NCBI GenBank assembly: GCA_964443135.1
Contig: CAYUBQ010000001.1
Coordinates: 96,719-160,718 of the forward strand
DNA length: 64,000 nt
Source: an uncultured Desulfobacterales bacterium
Lineage (GTDB): Bacteria; Desulfobacterota; DSM-4660; Desulfatiglandales; HGW-15
Reading direction: 5' to 3'
The position numbers and the translations under genes were made by a program. This document shows positions 12,298 through 63,052 of this stretch, in pieces. Each line of letters starts with the position of its first letter. The stretch's first letter is position 1. The notes under the pieces are model-generated. The model saw nothing but the letters and a program-made list of their open reading frames with translations, did no database searches and was not told the DNA's origin.

Positions 12298-12465
12298 TCA
12301 TACAGAGGTTCCTGGATTGTTGTGGAGGTCGAGATAGAGCTTACGGGCCCATCTCTTCACGCTCGTCACGCGGCTCACCGGCACTCCATACATTCGGGCC
12401 GGGAAGGGCCTCTGCATCTTGCGGGAGCCGAACGCGGTGAGGACATCCTCAATGAACCATCTCAT
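12298..12465 (-). pseudogene. Short helix-turn-helix ORF, possibly the remnant of a transposase N-terminus
   Basis: My own translation gives 55 codons (below the track cutoff): MRWFIEDVLTAFGSRKMQRPFPARMYGVPVSRVTSVKRWARKLYLDLHNNPGTSV*. ..YGVPVSRVTSVKRW.. looks like an IS630-type HTH. Weak. Confidence 0.2.
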
Positions 12466-12600
12466 CGCTTCAGAAGGTACGACGTGCCTGATGTTATTTT
12501 AGATTCCTATATACAGCGCGGAACTGAAGCACAAGCACTTCCTGCATTGGGATGGTTTCCCATCGCAGTTGCCATGCGATGCCGATACCGAGAGTGATGA

Positions 12601-12708
12601 TTGACGCATTCGCAAAAACCCGCTCACGCGCCGCTGGAGACGATATAACCATTGGAAATCCCAGGGGCAGATCTCGAGGATTCAGGCTTTTTGCGACTCC
12701 ATCATGAT
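12601..12708 (+). repeat. Copy A of the ~105-110 nt inverted-repeat element
   Basis: TTGACGCATTCGCAAAAACCCGCTCACGCGCCGCTGG...GGGGCAGATCTCGAGGATTCAGGCTTTTTGCGACTCCATCATGA. The ends are imperfect inverted repeats. Confidence 0.9.
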
Positions 12709-12811
12709 TATGCCGACCTCCGACGAGCTCCGCCAGATTCGGCGGCGGCGGAAGCGAAGCTCATGAAGGGTAGCAGGATGTTGACCATTACGGAGAGCGA
12801 AGTATGGCGAA

Positions 12812-13270
12812 ATGGCCACACTGCCGGTGAGCGAAGACGGGGCGCGGGAGGACGCTCCGGCCAAGAAGCGCTTGGTCGAGCACAGCCTGCAGCTGGACGT
12901 GCACAAGCCTATGCGGCTCGGGATCATCCGAGAGGGCGCACACGACACCGGCGGCATCGAGTGGCGGAACCTGGTAACAGGCACCATCGTCGGAGAGTGC
13001 CGATATCGGGTGGACTGCCGGCGCACGGATGCCCCGGCCATGGGAATCAAGTACCAGCTCCCGCACAGGGACCGGATGATGTCCATGATCCACCTCACAC
13101 CACGCGGCCGAACCATGGCGGGCTGCGATGGTGGTTCCTTTGCCCCGTCAAAGCCCCCTCAGGCCGCCGGTGTGAGGGCCGGGCAGGGAAGCTGTTCCTG
13201 GCCGCCCCCCGGGAGAAGCGTACGACGCATGTCGGAGCCGATAGGGTCCCTTTGGTTACTGAATACGTGA
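12812..13270 (+). pseudogene. Frameshifted remnant of a small zinc-ribbon hypothetical gene (GG.RWWF.CP...C.RR..KL(Y/F)L type)
   Basis: The N-terminal part reads in the 12812 frame (..IHLTPRGRTMAG). The conserved ..NHGGLRWWFLCPVKAPSGRRCEGRAGKLFL.. reads in the 12652 frame. Neither frame gives a complete protein. Family recognition is from memory only. Confidence 0.3.
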
Positions 13271-13419
13271 TTCGCCTTATTGATTCATCCAGGCCGGGTA
13301 GGTAGGGTGAGTACAAGATGTGAATGTGTGTCAGAAGGGTAGCTTCCCTGTATGATGGAACCAGAAAGGGCGGATAAAGAATGAGTCAATTGTGTATCAT
13401 TATTGTTGTCTGTTGATGG

Positions 13420-13527
13420 TTGACGCATTCGCAATAAACCCGCTCACGCGCCGCCGGGGACCATATAACCTGTTGAAACCCCGAGGGCAGATCTCAAGGA
13501 TGCGGGCCTTTTTCGACTCCATCATGG
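13420..13527 (+). repeat. Copy B of the inverted-repeat element
   Basis: TTGACGCATTCGCAATAAACCCGCTCACGCGCCGCCGGGG...GAGGGCAGATCTCAAGGATGCGGGCCTTTTTCGACTCCATCATGG. Confidence 0.9.
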
Positions 13528-13661
13528 TTGAATACAGCGGTGGCCTTGGGGGTTTCGGACGGACTGAATATGGGAGCAAACTCTGAGAGGGTGGAGGTAT
13601 CTGGGAGGCAAGCGCCTCCCATAGACAAACAATGTTTTAATTAAAGAAGGGGGGGTTTGTT

Positions 13662-13841
13662 ATGAATATCTTAAATTTCGTCATTGCCCTTATTGCATTG
13701 ATTATTGCAATCGTGGCATTTAAAAGAACAGGTGCAACTAAAGAGTACAAAAAAAGCACAGCCGAGCTTCTGGCCAAAATAGAAAAAAAGATGCGAGAAG
13801 AAGAAACAGGTAAAATGGACGAGACAAAAACACAGCAATAA
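13662..13841 (+). CDS. Small membrane-anchored protein (59 aa), hypothetical
   Basis: Not in the ORF track (under 60 aa). ATG at 13662 follows AAGAAGGGGGGG. MNILNFVIALIALIIAIVAFKRTGATKEYKKSTAELLAKIEKKMREEETGKMDETKTQQ* has one TM helix and a charged helix. A/T-rich third codon positions, unlike the backbone. Confidence 0.5.
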   Translation: MNILNFVIALIALIIAIVAFKRTGATKEYKKSTAELLAKIEKKMREEETGKMDETKTQQ

Positions 13842-13848
13842 TCGAAAA

Positions 13849-13953
13849 CATGATGGAGTCGTATAAAGCCCTGAACCTTGAGATCTGCCCAAGGAATATC
13901 AACGGGTTATAGTGTTCCCGCGGCGGACGAGCGGGTTTTTGCGAATCCGCCAA
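13849..13953 (-). repeat. Copy C of the inverted-repeat element
   Basis: Plus strand reads CATGATGGAGTCGTATAAAGCCCTGAACCTTGAGATCTGCCCAAGG...GAGCGGGTTTTTGCGAATCCGCCAA, the reverse complement of the consensus. Starts 8 nt after the stop of the 59-aa ORF. Confidence 0.9.
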
Positions 13954-14075
13954 AGCATATGATCGGTCCATTAAACGGAACCAAAATAATAAATATCATA
14001 TTATTGGTATTTTACCATCTATTTATGGACAATGGCTATTCTCGCTGTCTGCTACGAATCTGATGGAGTTTGATC

Positions 14076-14360
14076 ATGTACCTTTCGCTAATTATCACCT
14101 TTTTGCTTCTTCTGGTAACTATCATCGCGGCCATACAAAACAGTACACCTTTGGAGCTCAAGTTTTTCACTTGGAATATTCAGCTATCTATTACAGCCTT
14201 GATTTTTTATTCTTCTCTCATTGGTGGCGCCATTGTGGCGGTTTTGTCCTTGCCAAAACTGGCGAAGAAATCCCTTCACGTGAGGAGTATGAACAGGGAG
14301 ATCCATAAACTGAGGGAAAAGATCCTCGACTTGGAAAAAAGAGATGTTGCTGAATCATGA
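14076..14360 (+). CDS. LapA-domain (DUF1049) small inner-membrane protein
   Basis: ATG at 14076 lies 7 nt after GGAG (the track's 14070 start is TTG). MYLSLIITFLLLLVTIIAAIQNSTPLELKFFTWNIQLSITALIFYSSLIGGAIVAVL...REKILDLEK has two TM helices and a C-terminal coiled coil, typical of LapA/DUF1049. Confidence 0.75.
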   Translation: MYLSLIITFLLLLVTIIAAIQNSTPLELKFFTWNIQLSITALIFYSSLIGGAIVAVLSLPKLAKKSLHVRSMNREIHKLREKILDLEKRDVAES

Positions 14361-14461
14361 TGGAGTCGCAAAAGCCCCTGACCTTGAGATCTGCCATTGG
14401 AATTATCAATAGGTTATAGCTTTTCCAGCGGCGGGTGAGCGGGTTTTGGCGAATCCGTCAA
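14355..14461 (-). repeat. Copy D of the inverted-repeat element
   Basis: TCATGATGGAGTCGCAAAAGCCCCTGACCTTGAGATCTGCCATTGG...GAGCGGGTTTTGGCGAATCCGTCAA. Its first 6 nt include the last sense codon and the TGA stop of the LapA-like gene. Confidence 0.9.
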
Positions 14462-14567
14462 TCATGATGAAGTCGTAAAAAGCCCGCACTCTTGAGATCT
14501 GCCCATGGGATATCAATAAGTCATAGAGCGTCCAGCGGCGTGTGAGCAGGTTTTTGCGAATGCGTTA
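14462..14567 (-). repeat. Copy E of the inverted-repeat element, head-to-tail with copy D
   Basis: TCATGATGAAGTCGTAAAAAGCCCGCACTCTTGAGATCTGCCCATGGG...GAGCAGGTTTTTGCGAATGCGTTA. Begins at the base following copy D. Confidence 0.9.
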
Positions 14568-14621
14568 TCCATGAGACGATACTACATCCCAATCTGTCAG
14601 GCTTTCACTGCGAATTTGCAC

Positions 14622-15722
14622 CTACCTCAGCCACCAGCGGGCTTGGACATCGAGATTCGTGAGTCCGATTTCTTCCGCCTTATTTACGATCTTCTTGTAT
14701 TCCGCTCCATGAATCCTTCTTGAAAGCTCTGGGTAATCAAAGGCCTTATAGGCCGGGTTGTACTGTGCCATAATGTTGACATAGGTGTCCTTCGGCAGGT
14801 TCGCTACAATCCATTCCATGATGCTCTCCGAATCGGCCGTGTTGTTCGGCATGACCAGATGCCGGATCATCAACCCCCGTTGCATGACTCCGTTCTTCGA
14901 AGGACTTGCCACACCCACCTGCCGGTGCATCTCGAGGATGGCTTGCCTTGTTGTCTCCGGGTAGCTTTCCGCTCCGGCGGAGTATTTTTGCGACATGTCG
15001 CCATCCCAGTACTTGAAATCGGGCAGGTAGATGTCCACGACGCCGTCAAGCACCTCGAGGACCTCCAGACGCTCCCAGCCGGAGGTGTTGTACACAACCG
15101 GCAGCCGGAGTCCTTTTCCCGCTGCTGTATCGAGCGCCTCGAGAATGGCCGCAGCGTAATGGGTTGGGGTCACCACGTTGATGTTGTGGCAGCCCGTCCT
15201 CTGCAGCCGGAGCATCATTCCGGCCAGCTCATCCGGGCTTGTTTCCCGGCCCCTGCCGAGGTGGCTGATCTCCCAGTTCTGACAGAAGACGCATCGCAGG
15301 TTGCAGTGGGTCAGGAAGATCGTCCCGGAACCGCCTTTTCCGACCAGCGGTCTCTCCTCCCCAAAGTGTGGATGAGCCGCTGAAACCACCAGGGTCGCCC
15401 CGGGGGCGCGGCAGAACCCCGACTCGCCTTCGAGACGGTTGACGCCGCACACTCTCGGGCACAGGCGGCATTCCCGCATCATGGCCCGGAGCGTTTCTGC
15501 CCGCTTCTGGAGCTCACCCGTCCGGTGAAGCTCCAGGTAGGCCGGTTCGAAACCGGATGCGTTCTCAGCGGGCGTCTCCGCCGCCATGGCGGATCCGCCG
15601 ACAGACGACCCTCTCCCGGCCAGGCCGAGAAAGATCGAAGGCAGCCCGGCTTTCAGCAGCAGCTCGGCCGTGCCCTTGAGAAAACCCCTTCGCGTCAGCC
15701 CCTCTCTCGAAGCACCCATCAT
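14622..15722 (-). CDS. Radical SAM protein (PflX / COG1313-like) with an N-terminal twin-arginine signal
   Basis: CNLRCVFCQN is the CxxxCxxC cluster motif. ..CRLCPRVCGVNRLEGESGFCRA.. is typical of PflX-like proteins. N-terminus is MMGASREGLTRRGFLKGTAELLLKAGLPSIFLGLAG..SAMA. ATG at 15722 overlaps the upstream stop (ATGA). The longer track ORF (to 16118) overlaps the upstream gene and is rejected. Confidence 0.85.
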   Translation of the reverse strand: MMGASREGLTRRGFLKGTAELLLKAGLPSIFLGLAGRGSSVGGSAMAAETPAENASGFEPAYLELHRTGELQKRAETLRAMMRECRLCPRVCGVNRLEGESGFCRAPGATLVVSAAHPHFGEERPLVGKGGSGTIFLTHCNLRCVFCQNWEISHLGRGRETSPDELAGMMLRLQRTGCHNINVVTPTHYAAAILEALDTAAGKGLRLPVVYNTSGWERLEVLEVLDGVVDIYLPDFKYWDGDMSQKYSAGAESYPETTRQAILEMHRQVGVASPSKNGVMQRGLMIRHLVMPNNTADSESIMEWIVANLPKDTYVNIMAQYNPAYKAFDYPELSRRIHGAEYKKIVNKAEEIGLTNLDVQARWWLR

Positions 15723-18028: not shown

Positions 18029-18153
18029 TTCGATCCTGCTTGTTCGACCCGGTTAACACCACGTGGCCTGATCAGCTGCCCCCAAGCCAGTGCTGTACAA
18101 CCATGGTGGCCCGATAACCGTGGGCAGCCAGAGTATGGGTGCAGACCAGAGTG

Positions 18154-18224
18154 CCCGGCGGCGTGTGAGTGGGTTTTTGCGAACGCATCAATTAGGCCTG
18201 AGGGGATTTTTACGAGTCCATCAA
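18154..18224. repeat. Degenerate fragments (F) of the inverted-repeat element
   Basis: CCCGGCGGCGTGTGAGTGGGTTTTTGCGAACGCATCAA is the left end in minus orientation. It is followed by ..CCTGAGGGGATTTTTACGAGTCCATCAAA, which resembles a right end. The conserved CAGATCTC core is missing. Confidence 0.55.
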
Positions 18225-18247
18225 ACTTTGGTTGTGTGCAGATGAAT

Positions 18248-18577
18248 TTATTGGCTCAGTTTGGAACTGGCAATACGATTAAGGCTTACACCGGACTCAG
18301 CAGCTTGTATGGCCAATTTTCTATGTACATCTGGAGGCACACGAACCATAAATTTCCCACTGAAATGTTTACTTGCTATTGGTTCGGGAATAGGCTCATC
18401 GGTTTTGCCCATGTCCAATGAAACATCCGCTACAATATTTCGAATGCCTTTTAGTGCCTTTTCCGGTGTATCGGCCAGCCAACTCAGGCTGGGGAATTCA
18501 GCACACAGGCCGACATACTCATTATCATCTTCAGACCAAGTTACCCGGTATGTATATTTATCATTTTTTGTAGCCAT
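18248..18577 (-). CDS. hicB: HicB-family antitoxin
   Basis: 109 aa. YTYRVTWSEDDNEYVGLCAEFPSLSWLADTPEKALKGI is the HicB fold. The C-terminal ..RVPPDVHRKLAIQAAESGVSLNRIASSKL is an RHH-type DNA-binding tail. Overlaps hicA by 17 nt. Confidence 0.85.
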   Translation of the reverse strand: MATKNDKYTYRVTWSEDDNEYVGLCAEFPSLSWLADTPEKALKGIRNIVADVSLDMGKTDEPIPEPIASKHFSGKFMVRVPPDVHRKLAIQAAESGVSLNRIASSKLSQ

Positions 18578-18821
18578 GGCTCACCTCCAATTTTTCAATA
18601 GCCAAAAGCACCTGCTTGACTTGATATGCCTTAGCCTTTCCTTTATGATCCTGAATATTTATCCTTGGATCTCCTTGCCAGGGTGTCTTATAAATTCGAT
18701 GACTGCTTTTTTCTTGACGTGGCTTACCGAAATAATGCTCACATATTTTGCACAAATCTGAAAACCGAACATCCTTCGGATTTCGTCTCAACACCAAAAG
18801 CAGGTCATCGATTTTTGCCAT
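18561..18821 (-). CDS. hicA: HicA-family mRNA interferase toxin
   Basis: 86 aa. ..VRFSDLCKICEHYFGKPRQEKSSHRIYKTPWQGDPRINIQDHKGKAKAYQVKQVL.. is HicA/YcfA-like, with the conserved His in SSHRIY. Sits upstream of hicB. Confidence 0.8.
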   Translation of the reverse strand: MAKIDDLLLVLRRNPKDVRFSDLCKICEHYFGKPRQEKSSHRIYKTPWQGDPRINIQDHKGKAKAYQVKQVLLAIEKLEVSHGYKK

Positions 18822-18943: not shown

Positions 18944-19045
18944 GCCTGAGCCCGCACGCCGCGCGGTTTTTTCGTCGGCTGTTTTCCAGCGAACCTTCAA
19001 ACTTGGGCGGATCTCTCGGCCTTCGATTTCGACTGGGAACCAAGA
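18944..19045 (+). repeat. Degenerate copy (I) of the inverted-repeat element
   Basis: ..CCCGCACGCCGCGCGG..CCAGCGAACCTTCAAACTTGGGCGGATCTCTCGGCCTTCGATTTCGACTGGGAAC parallels ..CCCGCTCACGCGCCGC..AACC..TTGAAA..GGGCAGATCTCGAGG...TTTTGCGACTCCATC. The left terminus is not recognisable. Confidence 0.35.
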
Positions 19046-19473: not shown

Positions 19474-19878
19474 TCAGCGGCCGGCCCAGTCCTCGAGGAG
19501 CAAGCCGGGTACACGCTGGAACTCGCGGAGGTTGTTGGTGACCAGGATCAACCCGGATGCCCTCGCATGCCCTGCGATCATCATGTCATAGGGCCCGATG
19601 GGCCGACCGGTCGTATACAAGGCCGCGCGAATCCGTCCGAAGTGGTAAGCGGCGCTGCTGTCGAACGGCAAGACCTCGAGGCGCGCTGCAAAGGCTTCGA
19701 TGTCAGACAGGTTTCGCTCCACGTGTTGAGAGTGCTCGGCGCCGAACACCAGCTCCCCCAGCGTAACCGCCGAAATGCACATCCGACCCTCGTTCTGGAC
19801 GAAATGCTCCTTGACGCCATGGGGACGGCTTTTCATTGTGTAGATGACGATGTTCGTGTCCAGCATGTACTTCAGCAT
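19474..19878 (-). CDS. vapC: VapC-family PIN-domain toxin
   Basis: MLKYMLDTNIVIY.....LGELVFGAE....LPFD..AA..FG.IRA......GRPIGPYDMMIAGHARASGLILVTNN..EF has the PIN acidic residues in the canonical order. Confidence 0.9.
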   Translation of the reverse strand: MLKYMLDTNIVIYTMKSRPHGVKEHFVQNEGRMCISAVTLGELVFGAEHSQHVERNLSDIEAFAARLEVLPFDSSAAYHFGRIRAALYTTGRPIGPYDMMIAGHARASGLILVTNNLREFQRVPGLLLEDWAGR

Positions 19879-20120
19879 CAGAACGCTTCCCGCCTCTGAT
19901 CTTCGGGTTGTTCTCGCTGAACCATGAAATCCCTGGACACCCCGGGGCCTTCAAACCAATCCTCCCAGGACCGGCCGGCCGGGGTGATGATGCGGCTGCG
20001 GCCGACCCTCGTGATGCTCACGTCCCGGATCGATTCCGGAAACGCAACCTCCTTGGGCAGGCGGACGGCCTGACTTCGGTTGCTCTTGAACAGCCTGGTT
20101 CGAACTGAACCCATGATCAT
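19878..20120 (-). CDS. vapB: VapB antitoxin (AbrB/SpoVT-type)
   Basis: ..VRTRLFKSNRSQAVRLPKEVAFPESIRDVSITRVGRSRIITP.. is an AbrB-like swapped-hairpin motif. The stop overlaps the vapC start by 1 nt. The second ATG (20114) has better spacing from GGAGG and may be the true start. Confidence 0.8.
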   Translation of the reverse strand: MIMGSVRTRLFKSNRSQAVRLPKEVAFPESIRDVSITRVGRSRIITPAGRSWEDWFEGPGVSRDFMVQREQPEDQRREAF

Positions 20121-20181
20121 GCCTCCTGGAAGGGAGTAAGGGGTCGAGCACCTTTGCGACTCTAAAACAGGATAGACCAAA

Positions 20182-34157: not shown

Positions 34158-34250
34158 GTCCTCATCCGGCCCGCCCGTCGATCCCGGAAAGCCCTGCCGC
34201 CTCGATGCGGATCCTTTACCGTGAACGCCCCCTCGATGGGCCGGGCGTAG

Positions 34251-34271
34251 GGCGGCATTTCATATGCCGCC
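34251..34271 (+). terminator. Hairpin downstream of the sensor gene (weak terminator candidate)
   Basis: GGCGGCAT-TTCAT-ATGCCGCC, a perfect 8-bp stem, followed 6 nt later by TTTT. Lies 94 nt after the stop. Confidence 0.25.
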
Positions 34272-34466
34272 GCAAGGTTTTCGACAAGCACGTCGGGGTG
34301 TAAAACCCCGCCCTGCGAAAACACCGGTTCTCATCAGGGGGGTGACCGGAAACCGGTCATGGACGTTTGGCATGTGAGATGCCGCCCTGCGGGGGCCTCG
34401 GCGGGGTTGGCAATCTTCCCGGGAATCGTTTACACTGGCGCGGTCTGGAAACAACCACCCGGGATG

Positions 34467-34575
34467 GTGACGATGCATTCGCAAGGACCCGCTCACGCGC
34501 CGCTGGGGACGATATCATTGTTCATATCCCAGGGGCAGATCTCGAGGATTCGGGCTTTTCGCGACTCCATCACGA
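34467..34575 (+). repeat. Copy G of the inverted-repeat element
   Basis: GTGACGATGCATTCGCAAGGACCCGCTCACGCGCCGCTGGGGACG...CCCAGGGGCAGATCTCGAGGATTCGGGCTTTTCGCGACTCCATCACGA. Ends 47 nt upstream of the CMD-family gene start. Confidence 0.9.
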
Positions 34576-34622
34576 TTGAATCGCGGACGTTTCAAACCGG
34601 CACGCCAAGGAAAGGACGGTTC

Positions 34623-35039
34623 ATGGGAAAGGAAGAGGATCTCAAGACACGGACCCGGGAGACGGCCCAAACGCTCTTCGGCAAGGGCATCAAGATGGAC
34701 CCGCCCTACCTGACCTGGAAGGCCTTCGACCGGGAGCTGGCCAACGAGCTCTCCCTGCACATCACCGGCAACCTCTACTCGCGGCAGGTGCTGACCCTGC
34801 CGGAACGCCAGATGGCCACCTGCGCCATGCTGGCGGCGCTCCGCGCCACGGACGAGCTCAAGCTCCACATCAACGGGGCGCTCAACGTGGGGTGCGACCC
34901 GAGAAAGCTGGCCGAGGTCTTTTTTCAGCTCTCCACCTACGGGGGCATGCCCGCGGTGAACGAGGCCCTCCAGGCCTACCGGGAGGTGCTCGAGGAACGG
35001 GGCGAGTGGCCCATCGCCGACGGGCGGGGCGCGGCCTAG
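34623..35039 (+). CDS. Carboxymuconolactone decarboxylase (CMD/AhpD-like) family protein
   Basis: ATG at 34623 follows AAGGAAAGGA. ..LSLHITGNLYSRQVLTLPERQMATCAMLAALRATDELKLHINGALNVG....L.EVFFQLSTYGGMPA is a CMD-family pattern. Confidence 0.75.
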   Translation: MGKEEDLKTRTRETAQTLFGKGIKMDPPYLTWKAFDRELANELSLHITGNLYSRQVLTLPERQMATCAMLAALRATDELKLHINGALNVGCDPRKLAEVFFQLSTYGGMPAVNEALQAYREVLEERGEWPIADGRGAA

Positions 35040-42973: not shown

Positions 42974-43414
42974 ATGCTCAAGCGGGTGGACCATGTCAAC
43001 CTGGTCGTCCGTGATCTCGATCAGGCAAAAAAGTTTTTCGTGGACCTTGGTTTCGAGGAAATCGATCATGCCACGCTCTCCGGGGAGGATTTTTCGCGCG
43101 TCACCGGTTTGAGCCAAGCACATGCGAAATATGCGGCTCTCTCATTGAGGGGAGCGGAAACCAAACTCGAACTGATTCAGTACATCTACCCGCCTGGGGT
43201 CAAAAGCGCCGAAACGGGAAAAGCCAACCAGATCGGGCTGCGCCACCTCGCCTTTGAGGTAGACGACATTCATGCCGAAGTTCAGCGACTCAAAGCCCGG
43301 GGATTCCGTTTTCAGAGCGGAATCGAGATGTGGAAGCGCTCGGGGAAACGAATCGTGTATTTCCAAGGCCCAGAAGGAATTCTTCTCGAATTGGCCCAAT
43401 ATCCAATCCGATAA
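42974..43414 (+). CDS. VOC/glyoxalase-family protein
   Basis: MLKRVDHVNLVVRDLDQAKKFFVDLGFEE....GLRHLAFEVDDIHAEVQRLKARGF....GPEGILLELAQY is a paired beta-alpha-beta-beta-beta pattern with metal-ligand His/Glu positions. Confidence 0.85.
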   Translation: MLKRVDHVNLVVRDLDQAKKFFVDLGFEEIDHATLSGEDFSRVTGLSQAHAKYAALSLRGAETKLELIQYIYPPGVKSAETGKANQIGLRHLAFEVDDIHAEVQRLKARGFRFQSGIEMWKRSGKRIVYFQGPEGILLELAQYPIR

Positions 43415-44439: not shown

Positions 44440-45990
44440 TAAATACACCCTACTTTTCACGAGGCCGACCACGCCTCAAACTCGAAGCGGCGTTTGCCCA
44501 GCCACGGGATCTTCTTTGGACCGAGCTGCTTGAGCATCTGCAAAATGAGGGGTAGATGACGCTTCTTCTTCATGGATACGACAACCCGATCCGCCTCGAT
44601 CTTGAAGGAGCCGCCGTTGGCCAGGAATTTGGTGTTCAGGCTCTTGGCGGTCTCCCATTCATAGCCTTCGATCAGGAGGGCCATGGCTCGATAGAGGTTG
44701 TGGGCCGCGGCGGTCATGGTCAGGTCGAAGTCCACCTTGACCACGATGGAAGAGGACACCTGGTTGAGATGGAAGAAGTGGATCTGCTCGGAGATCCCCT
44801 TTTCGACGAGCCATCGCTTGGCATATTGTCTCACGATGCGGGCCGGCTTCCAGTCCCATACATTGGTCAGGATGAAGGCGGGCCTCTTGCGGCCGTGTCC
44901 GGTCACGACGAGCTGACGAAACGGCGGTCCGTCCTTGGTGAGGCTCACCGTGGATTCGTAGACATCGAGCTTGCGATGTTTCCTGGAGCTGTCGGGCAGC
45001 ACGACCCTCTGCCATTGATCGGAGGGCAAGGCCTCGATTTCTTCGACGAGCTTCTTCCCCCTACGCCGCAGGGTGATGAACTGTATTCCATCGTGGTCGA
45101 GCTTGGCCAGGTTCTCATAGGTGGTGAACTTGGAATCGAAGATCAGGCACTTGGGAGAGAGTCCTCCCTGCTTCCAGAAATCGACGAGCTCCAGGACGCA
45201 CTCCGGCTGATCCCGGTGCTTCACCTCGGCATCGGAGTAGCAGAAGATCCCCGAGTCCGCATCCTGGCAGAGAACGGCCAGGACGCTCTTGAGGGCCTGC
45301 CGCCGCTTGCCGGACCAGTTGTTCTCGAGCACACTGGCATCGCCCCAGTGGGGGATCGCGGTGAAGTCCATGTTGACCAGGCCGGAGAACACCCCTTCCT
45401 GGTCGAATGTCTTCTGCATGGCCCGGAGGAAGCGGACATTCATCTCCCGCTCCACCCGATAGGAATAGGAAGAAAGGGTCGCGGCCTTGGGCAAGACGTT
45501 GAGGCCGGCAAAGAGCCCCAGGCTCCGGTCCATGGCCCAGAGATCGTCCTGGCTGTACCGCTCGTAGCCGGAGAGCTTGAGGGCCAAAAAGGACAGGACG
45601 CTCTGGGTGCGGTTCAGCTCGGATGTCTCCGGATACCGGGCATGGTCGATCCAGCGGTGTACCTTGAGCTTGACCAGCAGAGGGAGGAGCGTGAGGAGCC
45701 CGATACCCCTCTCGGAGTGAAACGTCTTGCCCATGTCCAGTTCCCAATCCAGGCTCCGGGTTTGAGGGGCGGCAAGGCGGCTCACCGATCCTTTTCGCTT
45801 CTCCAGGGTGTTTCGCCTGGGAAGACGGCTGAACCCGTCTTCCACCAGAATGCGGTGGATGAAGTCATGGGAGGTCTTGTGGCCCATGGTATCGAGGGCG
45901 GCCTGGATATCCAGGATGGAGTAGTTCTGCTTGCGAGAGAGTCCCGCATCGACTGCACCGTGGTCGCTTCCAATATCCATCCCCGACGGA
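44440..45990 (-). mobile_element. IS element (IS4-superfamily-like); boundaries approximate
   Basis: A single transposase ORF fills the segment. There is a sharp composition change at about 44440-44457 (AT-rich island DNA to the left). The right edge abuts a second, truncated transposase gene at about 45983-45997. A 13-nt imperfect inverted pair, GAGGCCGACCACG (44461-44473) and CGTGGTCGCTTC (45959-45970), lies at the ORF ends but may be coincidental. Confidence 0.6.
44457..45980 (-). CDS. DDE transposase (IS4/IS1634-like)
   Basis: 507 aa. Candidate DDE residues lie in ..LVNMDFTAIPHWGD.., ..LIFDSKFTTYENL.. and ..YAKRWLVEKGISEQ (Y-2-R-3-E signature). N-terminal HTH-like segment present. Confidence 0.8.
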   Translation of the reverse strand: MDIGSDHGAVDAGLSRKQNYSILDIQAALDTMGHKTSHDFIHRILVEDGFSRLPRRNTLEKRKGSVSRLAAPQTRSLDWELDMGKTFHSERGIGLLTLLPLLVKLKVHRWIDHARYPETSELNRTQSVLSFLALKLSGYERYSQDDLWAMDRSLGLFAGLNVLPKAATLSSYSYRVEREMNVRFLRAMQKTFDQEGVFSGLVNMDFTAIPHWGDASVLENNWSGKRRQALKSVLAVLCQDADSGIFCYSDAEVKHRDQPECVLELVDFWKQGGLSPKCLIFDSKFTTYENLAKLDHDGIQFITLRRRGKKLVEEIEALPSDQWQRVVLPDSSRKHRKLDVYESTVSLTKDGPPFRQLVVTGHGRKRPAFILTNVWDWKPARIVRQYAKRWLVEKGISEQIHFFHLNQVSSSIVVKVDFDLTMTAAAHNLYRAMALLIEGYEWETAKSLNTKFLANGGSFKIEADRVVVSMKKKRHLPLILQMLKQLGPKKIPWLGKRRFEFEAWSAS

Positions 45991-46879
45991 CTCCTCGTTG
46001 CTCTATGACGGGGTCCGGGTCATCACGCGCCTCCTGCATCGGGCCCGGGAAGGCCTGCAGGGCATCGACACCCCTTTTACCGATCACACCCGCAGGGCCA
46101 AGCGCAGGATGCTGGGTGTAAAAAACGCCAAGAACAAGAAGGCGCGGAAGCCCCAATACCAGGATCTTCTCAAGGTCACCAAGAAGACCCTCGGCTACGC
46201 AGCAAACATCCTCGCCGAGATCAGGACGGGCGTGTTCCTCGATCCCCAGGAGACCCTGCTGGCCTTGAGTCTTCAACAGGACCTGGAGGGATACATCGAA
46301 CTCACCACGCGGGTGATCGACCAAACCGAGCGCCGTGTCCTGCGGGAGGAAAAAGTCCCGGCCCAGGAGAAGGTGGTCTCCCTTTTCGAGCCCCACACGG
46401 ACATCATTGTCAAGGACCGACGGGATACCTATTACGGCCACAAGGTCTGCCTGAGCAGCGGTCACTCCGGTCTGATCACGGACTGCATCATCACCAAGGG
46501 CAACCCGGCGGACACCGACTTGACCATCGACATGCTCGACCGACAGAACGAGGTCTTCGGGCGCTACCCCCTCAAGGTAGCCTTGGATGGGGGCTTTGCG
46601 TCGAAGGACAATCTCGCGTCGGCCAAGGCCATGGGGATCAAGGATGTCTGCTTTGCCAAGAAGCGCGGCCTCAAGGTCGAGGACATGTGCCGGAGCGAGT
46701 ATGTCTACAGCCGACTCCGGCGCTTCCGGGCAGGGGTCGAGTCCGGGATCTCCTGGCTGAAGCGCTGCTTTGGTTTTGACAAGTGCACCTGGAAGGGCCT
46801 GCGCTCGTTCAAGAGCTATGTCTGGGCCTCCCTGGTGACTGCAAATCTGGTGACCATCATCAGACAACTGCAACTTTAA
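45983..46879 (+). pseudogene. 5'-truncated DDE transposase (IS5/ISNCY-like)
   Basis: Reading begins at ..PTDSSLLYDGVRVITRLL.., which is the region around the first catalytic Asp of IS5-type enzymes. It continues through ..VALDGGFASKDNL.. and ..RFRAGVESGISWLKRCFGFDKCTWKGLRSFKSYVWASLVTANL. No N-terminal DNA-binding part is present, and the only start is TTG at 45998. Confidence 0.6.
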
Positions 46880-47100
46880 AAGGCTTAACGAAAGCATTAA
46901 AATAGCTATTAAAATTATTTACAGCTAAATAATGCCTCAAAATAACTATTTTACGCCTACATAGCGAGACCGCAATCCGATTCCGGGTTCAAAGCATGGA
47001 GTTTGGAGCGTAACGGACATTTTTTGTTCACTCTCAACCGTAAAATTGCTCTTTCTGGATAGGCACTAACTAAAAGAATGGCCCGAGTGCTGTTCGGTAC

Positions 47101-61823: not shown

Positions 61824-61840
61824 AACACCCCATTTCATGT

Positions 61841-61959
61841 TTGACGGCTTCGCAGAAAGCCCTTCAGCCGCGACGCTTAAGACCTTAACCCCAAAACTTT
61901 CTGCGGGCCGTCGTTTTTCTCAGCCCAGCCGGATCCAGAATGCCGGCGGACTCAAGCAG
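61841..61959 (+). repeat. Diverged copy (J) of the inverted-repeat element
   Basis: TTGACGGCTTCGCAGAAAGCCCTTCAGCCGCGACGC.. closely parallels the left third of copy H and the consensus. The right end (..CGGACTCAAGCAG) is only loosely similar, and the CAGATCTC core is absent. Confidence 0.5.
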
Positions 61960-62781: not shown

Positions 62782-62897
62782 TTCAATCTTCCTCCTGTTA
62801 CTAAATTAATTTATGGGCACCACTCCTGGTTTCAGTTTTTTGGGTCGTGATTCAATGCAACAGGTAACGAAACCCGGATTCATGGAATCAGCCCAAA

Positions 62898-63000
62898 TAT
62901 GACGGGGTCGCAAAATGCCTCATGCCTTGAGATCTGACTTATGTTACAATAGGATGAGGCCATTCAGCGGCGGCTAAGAGGGCATTGCGAAGCCGTCAAA
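62898..63000 (-). repeat. Copy H of the inverted-repeat element (AT-richer subfamily)
   Basis: Plus strand reads TATGACGGGGTCGCAAAATGCCTCATGCCTTGAGATCTGACTTATG...CAGCGGCGGCTAAGAGGGCATTGCGAAGCCGTCAAA, the reverse complement of the consensus layout including the GAGATCTG core. Confidence 0.8.
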
Positions 63001-63052
63001 TATGGTTATTAATTGTATCATCGTGTAGAAGATCATATTATATTTCGAAGTA

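Follow-up and report, generated by a model that had tools for sequence, protein, structure and literature searches.

We describe a short repeat found in a 64,000-nucleotide stretch of DNA from an uncultured Desulfobacterales bacterium (contig CAYUBQ010000001.1, positions 96,719 to 160,718; hereafter the window). The repeat very likely represents a family of non-autonomous DNA transposons of the kind known as miniature inverted-repeat transposable elements (MITEs). Apart from an autonomous partner, for which the searches were negative, the MITE features that were tested were all found: the element is non-coding and, at about 101 bp, below the MITE limit of about 300 bp, has inverted repeats, duplicates its target, occurs in dispersed copies and differs in presence between strains. 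It is ordinary selfish DNA that stands out mainly by the very high number of its copies and by a hairpin conserved at one end; its unusual traits are this copy number, an asymmetric target combined with strictly head-to-tail clustering, and the covariation of the subterminal hairpin. An earlier reading of the window alone, referred to below as the original prediction, had proposed a MITE or a Correia/REP-like element. The comparison with MITEs stands, but a REP- or REPIN-like mechanism is unsupported because the target bases are duplicated.

Identification and distribution of the family

Searches for direct and inverted repeats recover the copies at 12.6–14.6 kb, 34.5 kb and 62.9 kb of the window. 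A 23-base gapped pattern made from the invariant columns matches seven times in the window, compared with no match in 100 dinucleotide shuffles. An nhmmer profile was built from the seven best window copies, for which reason their own E-values (3e-23 to 3e-35) are partly circular, and the independent support for the family is given by profile matches in unrelated loci. Scanning one genome per species with the gapped pattern yielded at least 72 loci; on these the profile gave at least 108 matches, at least 76 of them full length, in at least 68 loci. Pattern loci from Thermoleophilia, Novosphingobium, Clostridiales and Neorhizobium are chance matches as judged by nhmmer. The repeated element with terminal inverted repeats that had been claimed from the window is thus real by the profile, by the gapped pattern and by its matches in other genomes.

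Among the listed loci most come from one 'uncultured Desulfobacterales' metagenome-assembled genome (MAG), CAYVVQ01. The other carriers are CAYVDE01, CAZEIA01, CAYYVD01, CAZQCK01, JAIPEI01 and one contig binned as Brocadiaceae, and full copies occur in at least six related MAGs, so that the further copies which the original prediction had proposed to look for outside the window do exist. The window and a CAYVVQ01 contig share 85% nucleotide identity across 3.2 kb. Amplification in CAYVVQ01 is recent, since 36 pairs of its copies reach 95% identity or more and some copies are identical. The window copies are older: they average 74% identity, and the nearest match of each is found in another genome and not among its neighbours.

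The window derives from a metagenome, with X1 as the source run. In this run the depth is about 48,000 for words from the conserved left end and about 10,000 for those from the right end, compared with 35 for single-copy flank. Element words thus lie at 300–1400 times single-copy depth; the ratios in a further run, X4, are similar, and metagenomes of sediment and tidal flat from two other studies likewise show high depth. Even if related populations in the sample contribute to it, word depth so far above single copy means that each genome contains hundreds of copies, which agrees with the approximately one copy per 7 kb seen in the window.

The family appears to be new and undescribed within a well-known kind, since neither Rfam and PLSDB nor full-text searches of papers gave a match, and the original prediction had likewise not recognised it. 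The Rfam covariance models gave no match in the entire window at the gathering threshold and none in 12400–14800 at E ≤ 1. A full-text search of papers with four diagnostic 14–15-mers returned a single, irrelevant plant-virus match, and BLAST of the consensus against the PLSDB plasmids returned none. The literature on ISDol1 and on MITEs in sulfate reducers yielded nothing useful.

Boundaries, target-site duplication and terminal repeats

The boundaries were defined from an alignment of 58 full copies with 30-nt flanks, taken from the window and related MAGs. Information content rises and falls sharply at the edges of a core of about 101 bp, GACGG...CCATC, which is flanked on both sides by a direct 6-mer, A-N-N-W-T-T. 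The flanking 6-mers are identical at both ends in 36 of the 58 copies, and the three free positions agree in 45–46 copies, compared with 16–24 expected from shuffling. Positions outside the 6-mer show no agreement between left and right. Because the variable bases match at both ends, the 6-mer is a target-site duplication. The (C/G)ATG(A/G) flanks that had been assigned to the element belong to this duplication (consensus ANNWTT) instead.

The left end of the element always adjoins TT. Since the A and the TT of the 6-mer are nearly fixed, the duplicated length is ambiguous: between three and six bases within ANNWTT are truly duplicated, and 3, 4 or 6 bp fit. An alternative reading places the boundaries at TGACGG...CCATCA, giving TG...CA termini and a 4-bp duplication (NNWT). 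This reading is mildly favoured by the better conservation of the right-hand A relative to the left-hand A (56 versus 46 of 58).

The terminal inverted repeats are imperfect and 20–25 bp in length (left end, TGACGGNTTCGCAAAAACCCG; reverse complement of the right end, TGATGGMGTCGYAAAAAGCCC). Their 19 end-to-end pairs are 85% complementary over the 58 copies, compared with 36–55% in slid controls. The covariation score of the terminal repeats is 0.043 versus 0.045 in shuffles, indicating no compensatory changes, and for this reason the repeats are better explained as protein-binding sites than as a maintained stem.

The copies were predicted to be non-coding and intergenic, and both points are borne out. 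Column entropy by codon position is 0.58/0.40/0.42, with no three-base periodicity, and the reading frames through the copies vary and hold stops. Apparent synonymous changes had made the right half a candidate coding sequence, which the lack of periodicity rules out. About 87% of the sequence falls within stop-to-stop open reading frames (ORFs), yet 74 of 82 copies lie outside long ORFs.

Subterminal hairpin and central region

The left subterminal hairpin pairs consensus positions 9–13 with 30–34, with inner pairs between 16–17 and 26–27. Column pair 11/34 occurs as GC (41) and CG (14) and column pair 12/33 as GC (30), AU (6) and CG (2); there are also mismatched intermediates, GA/CC among them. 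The covariation score of this hairpin is 0.189 versus 0.099 in shuffles, none of 500 being as high. When it is taken together with a central helix, 93% of cells are paired and there are 37 double-sided changes where 12 are expected; again none of 500 shuffles is as high, and slid controls reach at most 17. The independent compensatory events are few, perhaps three or four, because the changes define only a few subfamilies. Read on the minus strand, the left hairpin has 11 pairs when G-U pairs are included.

The centre of the element holds an invariant GCAGATCTC block, which contains GATC, and a motif that resembles the consensus binding site of integration host factor (IHF). The IHF consensus is exact in 21 of the 58 copies, and another 21 match eight of its nine specified positions, the location being the same in every case. 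Shuffles contain 0.2 on average. By a rough estimate, the chance of such a motif in one 113-nt consensus is about 0.003.

Insertion sites and clustering

Copies prefer divergent to convergent intergenic regions (13 versus 5 copies, against a background of 65 versus 64). Five copies lie within about 2 kb of the window. With the copies masked, the density of ANNWTT is 15.9 per kb at 12.5–14.7 kb (50% GC) compared with 1.5–1.9 per kb in the 67% GC bulk, and this packing can be attributed to the fact that AT-rich target sites are some tenfold denser in low-GC intergenic patches. The cluster region tolerates insertions between its genes, which are short and comprise those for a LapA-domain protein and a 59-residue membrane peptide as well as an ORF that is unknown and probably frameshifted.

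Wherever two copies are separated by 104 nt or less, as in ten pairs, they stand head to tail. A single 6-mer shared between neighbours at a 107-bp period is seen in the pair D–E, in locus L031 and in metagenome joints at which the sequence goes back 107. Such clustering is accounted for if, after each insertion, both borders again carry ANNWTT in one and the same orientation.

We also note a 21-kb island of 41–55% GC at 43000–64000 of the window, set in a 67% GC background. Although target motifs are dense there (23.5 per kb), no more than one full and one decayed copy are present. The island carries anaerobic catabolic genes, namely those for an aldehyde:ferredoxin oxidoreductase, a UbiD-type decarboxylase, an Fe-alcohol dehydrogenase, a PrpD-like protein and a metallo-beta-lactamase-fold protein.

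Strain differences

The strain in run X4 and the window are about 95% identical. In one X4 contig, 13844 is followed directly by 13952, with exactly 107 nt absent and three shared or ambiguous letters. The missing sequence corresponds to the core of copy C plus one copy of the duplication, and the empty site keeps the other. This strain without copy C retains the adjacent 59-residue ORF. A relative with an empty site had been named in the original prediction as a means of defining the ends, and this is such a relative. In addition, an X4 contig has a single unit where the window has D–E, skipping 14374–14490 with 10 letters between, a net change of -107 nt. The absence from X4 of copy C and of one D–E unit indicates that copies are gained or lost between strains. 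Polymorphism was also looked for at copy H and site J, from which no information was obtained, and the loci L032 and L058 are too diverged for their comparison to define an empty site.

The orthologous copies in loci L007 and L044 are about 97% identical, while their flanks are 77–87% identical. The first base of the duplicated 6-mer is G at both ends in one of these copies and A at both ends in the other. Since the two duplicated 6-mers differ alike, the simplest reading would be two independent insertions at the same site by one conserved active subfamily. The likeness of this single pair may also have arisen from gene conversion or from selection in place.

Search for an autonomous partner

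Neither the window nor 560 kb of related loci nor a metagenome scan yielded an autonomous element with these ends. Scanning the window and the 72 loci for orphan ends returned truncated copies only. A left-end pattern that forbids the MITE interior gave no match in viral contigs and nine chance matches in metagenome contigs. All-against-all BLAST revealed no multi-copy segment of 250 bp or longer beyond orthologous regions, and regular-expression scans of the 560 kb for rve-type and IS4/IS5-type catalytic motifs were negative.

Three candidates were considered and set aside. The first is a DDE transposase remnant in the window, which has no ends resembling the MITE; the statement that the window contains no matching full-length insertion sequence therefore holds. 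This 507-residue remnant, at 44457–45980 on the minus strand, with ORFs up to 46897, sits at the edge of the low-GC island. It matches the IS1380, IS4 and IS701 models weakly, below curated cut-offs, and the presence of ORFs on both strands at 44457–46897 suggests a broken element. The second is a 352-residue ORF in locus L036 (4677–5735, plus strand), about 240 nt from a MITE right-end fragment, which has no Pfam match; its product looks rich in Lys, Tyr and Phe. The third, considered as the edge of a parent element, is a left-end-only piece at L053 5382–5526. It consists of the left 34 nt with the hairpin, beyond which unrelated AT-rich sequence runs to the end of the contig. This downstream sequence is unique among the loci, and the piece may be either a truncated copy or the border of a larger structure.

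Proposed mechanism and comparison with known systems

In our view, the data are most consistent with movement in trans, by cut-or-copy-and-paste. A transposase of the DDE type, encoded elsewhere, would bind both inverted ends as its recognition sites and insert the element through staggered cuts. Bending at the central IHF-like site may allow the ends to synapse on 100 bp of DNA, which is shorter than the persistence length. The left hairpin may be needed for mobility, or may have been inherited from the left-end control region of a parent element. Copies would accumulate in low-GC intergenic patches rich in the AT-rich target, and a new copy would tend to land head to tail beside an old one, with the target recreated at the borders.

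Several observations weigh against this interpretation. Compensatory changes in a hairpin are atypical of MITEs and recall HUH transposons or structured RNAs. The ANNWTT target is asymmetric, which is unusual for a twofold-symmetric DDE transposition complex. The clean empty site was seen only once, in assembled contigs of one sample and not in raw reads. The failure of the search for an autonomous element belongs here as well.

Comparison with described families places the element near several of them, and in its behaviour it closely parallels Correia elements and RUP. Like the Correia elements of Neisseria (CREE/NEMIS), which are non-coding, about 100–150 bp in length and bounded by terminal inverted repeats of about 25 bp, it occurs in hundreds of intergenic copies per genome, has a central IHF-type site and inserts near gene ends. 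Correia elements duplicate TA, whereas the duplication here lies within ANNWTT, for which reason we do not count the element as a member; the host phylum is also different, and the present copies show no outward promoter or terminator consensus. The distinction from Correia, whose 26-bp inverted-repeat sequence is family-specific, is made by description, the unrelatedness of the sequences being assumed and not measured. RUP of Streptococcus pneumoniae (107 bp) and other MITEs derived from IS630 are likewise non-autonomous, have a nearly equal unit length and inverted repeats and are presumably moved in trans by a resident transposase. Elements of the IS630/mariner type duplicate TA at a palindromic target, whereas the target here is asymmetric and longer and there is no known cognate insertion sequence.

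MITEs derived from IS3-, IS481- or IS21-type elements are also similar. Such elements have TG...CA termini and duplications of 3–8 bp (3–5 bp in the IS3 family, whose transposase partner is an OrfAB protein of the rve type), and the present repeat has TG...CA termini and a 4-bp duplication if it is read as TGACGG...CCATCA; tandem copies likewise have abutted right-end/left-end junctions. This reading is not unique, since 3–6 bp fits, and no rve-type motif is present in the 560 kb. The termini and the 4-bp duplication presumably point to a DDE enzyme of the IS3, IS481 or IS21 type, which we take as a lead only. REP/REPIN–RAYT systems share the short length, great abundance, intergenic location, inverted-repeat architecture and a conserved small hairpin. 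They differ in that REPINs lack a target duplication and form a hairpin over their whole length, while here the target is duplicated and there is no end-to-end covariation.

Alternative explanations

The element could instead be a host-selected structured repeat that acts as RNA, either in the stability of mRNA like ERIC or REP or as a small RNA family, with transposition being secondary. The excess of double-sided changes in the left hairpin and central helix would fit such a role, as would the 11 pairs reached by the minus-strand hairpin via G-U and the close similarity of the L007 and L044 copies relative to their flanks. Against this, the fold energies of single copies are no better than those of shuffles (z from -1.4 to +1.6), and the G-U evidence suggests opposite strands for the two helices. 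Relative to flanking co-directional genes, 22 copies are in the opposite and 13 in the same orientation, a difference that is not significant. No promoter- or terminator-like sites were seen in the copies, nor was there an Rfam match, and the 6-mers of L007 and L044 suggest independent insertions and not conservation in place. A search of RNA-seq runs for the region found no run containing it. On balance we consider an RNA role unlikely.

A variant of the transposon reading is that the element is the substrate of an unrecognised, possibly single-copy transposase and not an ordinary deletion derivative of a multi-copy insertion sequence. Such an enzyme would read the left-end DNA hairpin and insert the element one way at the asymmetric ANNWTT while still duplicating the target. 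We regard this as improbable. If true, the transposase would be a hybrid of REPIN/RAYT-like genome colonization and cut-and-paste target duplication, and it would explain the hundreds of copies per genome, the absence of a detectable parent, the head-to-tail clusters and the L007/L044 identity.

Movement as single-stranded DNA by an HUH enzyme of the RAYT or IS200/IS605 type, which would read the hairpin as in REPIN- or PATE-like elements, accords with the conserved, covarying subterminal hairpin, with strictly oriented insertion beside a short motif and with a very high copy number where no multi-copy insertion sequence was detected. HUH single-strand transposition (IS200/IS605, REP/RAYT) makes no target duplication, however, and in the present family variable target bases are truly duplicated and the empty site keeps one copy. 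A clear subterminal hairpin is found at the left end only, and no RAYT-like gene was seen, although no search aimed at RAYT was made. We consider this explanation very improbable. Finally, the five elements at 12.6–14.6 kb hardly merit consideration as attC-type sites bracketing small integron cassettes: the 59-residue ORF, the 96-residue LapA-domain protein and the unknown ORF do each lie between two elements in a low-GC stretch, but A and B lie on the plus strand and C, D and E on the minus strand, D and E abut with nothing between them, the ends lack GTTRRRY/RYYYAAC cores, copies are dispersed singly over many loci with target duplications, and the related strain without copy C keeps the genes.

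Copies and neighbouring features in the window

The coordinates of the copies are given in Table 1. The window holds seven full copies and two degenerate sites, fewer than the 'at least 10 copies' of the original prediction. All five copies said to be packed into about 2 kb (A–E) were found again by nhmmer. Fragment F is element-derived, though it consists of two abutting fragments of opposite strand rather than a single piece. Site J, listed as a diverged copy at 61841–61959, is related but keeps only its left part. The supposed copy 'I' (18944–19045) gave no nhmmer match at E ≤ 10 and no BLAST match to any related locus, and is not a copy.

Table 1. Copies of the element in the window, with sequence features located on copy A
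Feature	Position	Strand	Details	Basis
Copy A	12597-12709	+	core GACG...CATC 12603-12703; duplication ATGATT 12597-12602 (left) and ATGATT 12704-12709 (right)	nhmmer E = 3e-35; identical 6-mers
Copy B	13416-13529	+	core 13422-13523; duplication ATGGTT 13416-13421 and 13524-13529	nhmmer E = 1e-33
Copy C	13845-13958	-	core 13852-13951; flanks AAAACAT and AAAGCAT	nhmmer E = 1e-31
Copy D	14353-14465	-	core 14359-14459	nhmmer E = 4.5e-32
Copy E	14460-14572	-	core 14466-14566	nhmmer E = 3.5e-33
Site F	18148-18226		two truncated copies abutting, facing each other	partial nhmmer matches and sequence
Site F, left-end fragment	18148-18193	-		
Site F, right-end fragment	18196-18226	+		
Copy G	~34466-34577	+		nhmmer E = 9e-31
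Site J	61837-61907	+	decayed; left ~48 nt kept, including hairpin	nhmmer E = 0.0055, model positions 2-49
Copy H	62894-63004	-	duplication ATATTT at both ends	nhmmer E = 3e-23
Left subterminal hairpin, copy A	12605-12630	+	CGGNT...ANCCG	covariation
Central IHF-consensus-like motif, copy A	12645-12660	-	WATCAANNNNTTR	copy A itself a near match

Copy C begins 4 nt past the stop of the 59-residue ORF. The outer duplication of copy D (AATCAT, 14353–14358) overlaps the stop codon of the LapA-domain ORF (14070–14360), the last bases of which come from the insertion. Copies D and E form a head-to-tail tandem with a 107-bp period and have one 6-mer (14460–14465) in common. The only sizeable ORF in the gap between A and B (12652–13305, plus strand) looks frameshifted, its N-terminal part (12812–13270) being in one frame, while the other frame encodes a zinc-ribbon-like 'GGLRWWFLCP...GRR..GKLF' sequence with its cysteines lost; neither frame has a Pfam match.

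Copy G is located in the 5' intergenic region of a CMD-family gene (34623–35039), for which an exact-protein look-up returned no record. Because its left end has a 3-nt insertion and its flanking 6-mers differ from each other, copy G is probably immobile. Copy H, the most diverged of the full copies, has the GC/GC variant of the hairpin, and in the metagenome its words are single-copy. It is flanked on one side by a metallo-beta-lactamase-fold gene and on the other by a PrpD-like gene. The low-GC patch that holds fragment F also contains two toxin–antitoxin pairs on the minus strand (18248–18821 and 19474–20180). The first consists of a HicB-domain antitoxin and a putative HicA, the latter without a Pfam match, and the second of a PIN (VapC) toxin and an AbrB/MazE-type antitoxin.

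Two other repeats were noted near copies of the element. One of them, at 34216–34345 immediately upstream of copy G, is about 130 bp long, high in copy number and unrelated to the MITE. Its depth in X1 is about 4,800 compared with 34 for single-copy sequence, and a contig of run X5 skips 34217–34398; the repeat also occurs in L028, L036 and L043, often abutting MITE copies. The other, of about 119 bp and flanked by the 8-bp direct repeat CTTAGGGC, lies inside the L007 MITE copy (1280–1406), while the orthologous copy in L044 (2423–2537) is intact and lacks this insert. Related sequence adjoins the MITE right-end fragment at L036 4434–4600.

Implications

If the window density of approximately one copy per 7 kb is extrapolated, the element accounts for roughly 1–2% of these genomes. 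Short-read assemblies of abundant sediment Desulfobacterales are broken by the element: many copies lie at contig ends, and the Logan contigs along the window break at every copy. With a profile of the family, binning, scaffolding and annotation would improve, and gene calls on the recurrent 'GQISR..AF.DSI' pseudo-peptides would be prevented. Differences in copy presence can serve as strain-level markers. Current understanding is unchanged unless the missing transposase proves unusual. With hundreds of copies in several subfamilies, the family constitutes a clean natural data set for asking which of the ends, the hairpin and the IHF-like site a MITE needs in order to move, and it could also be used for studying oriented target choice.

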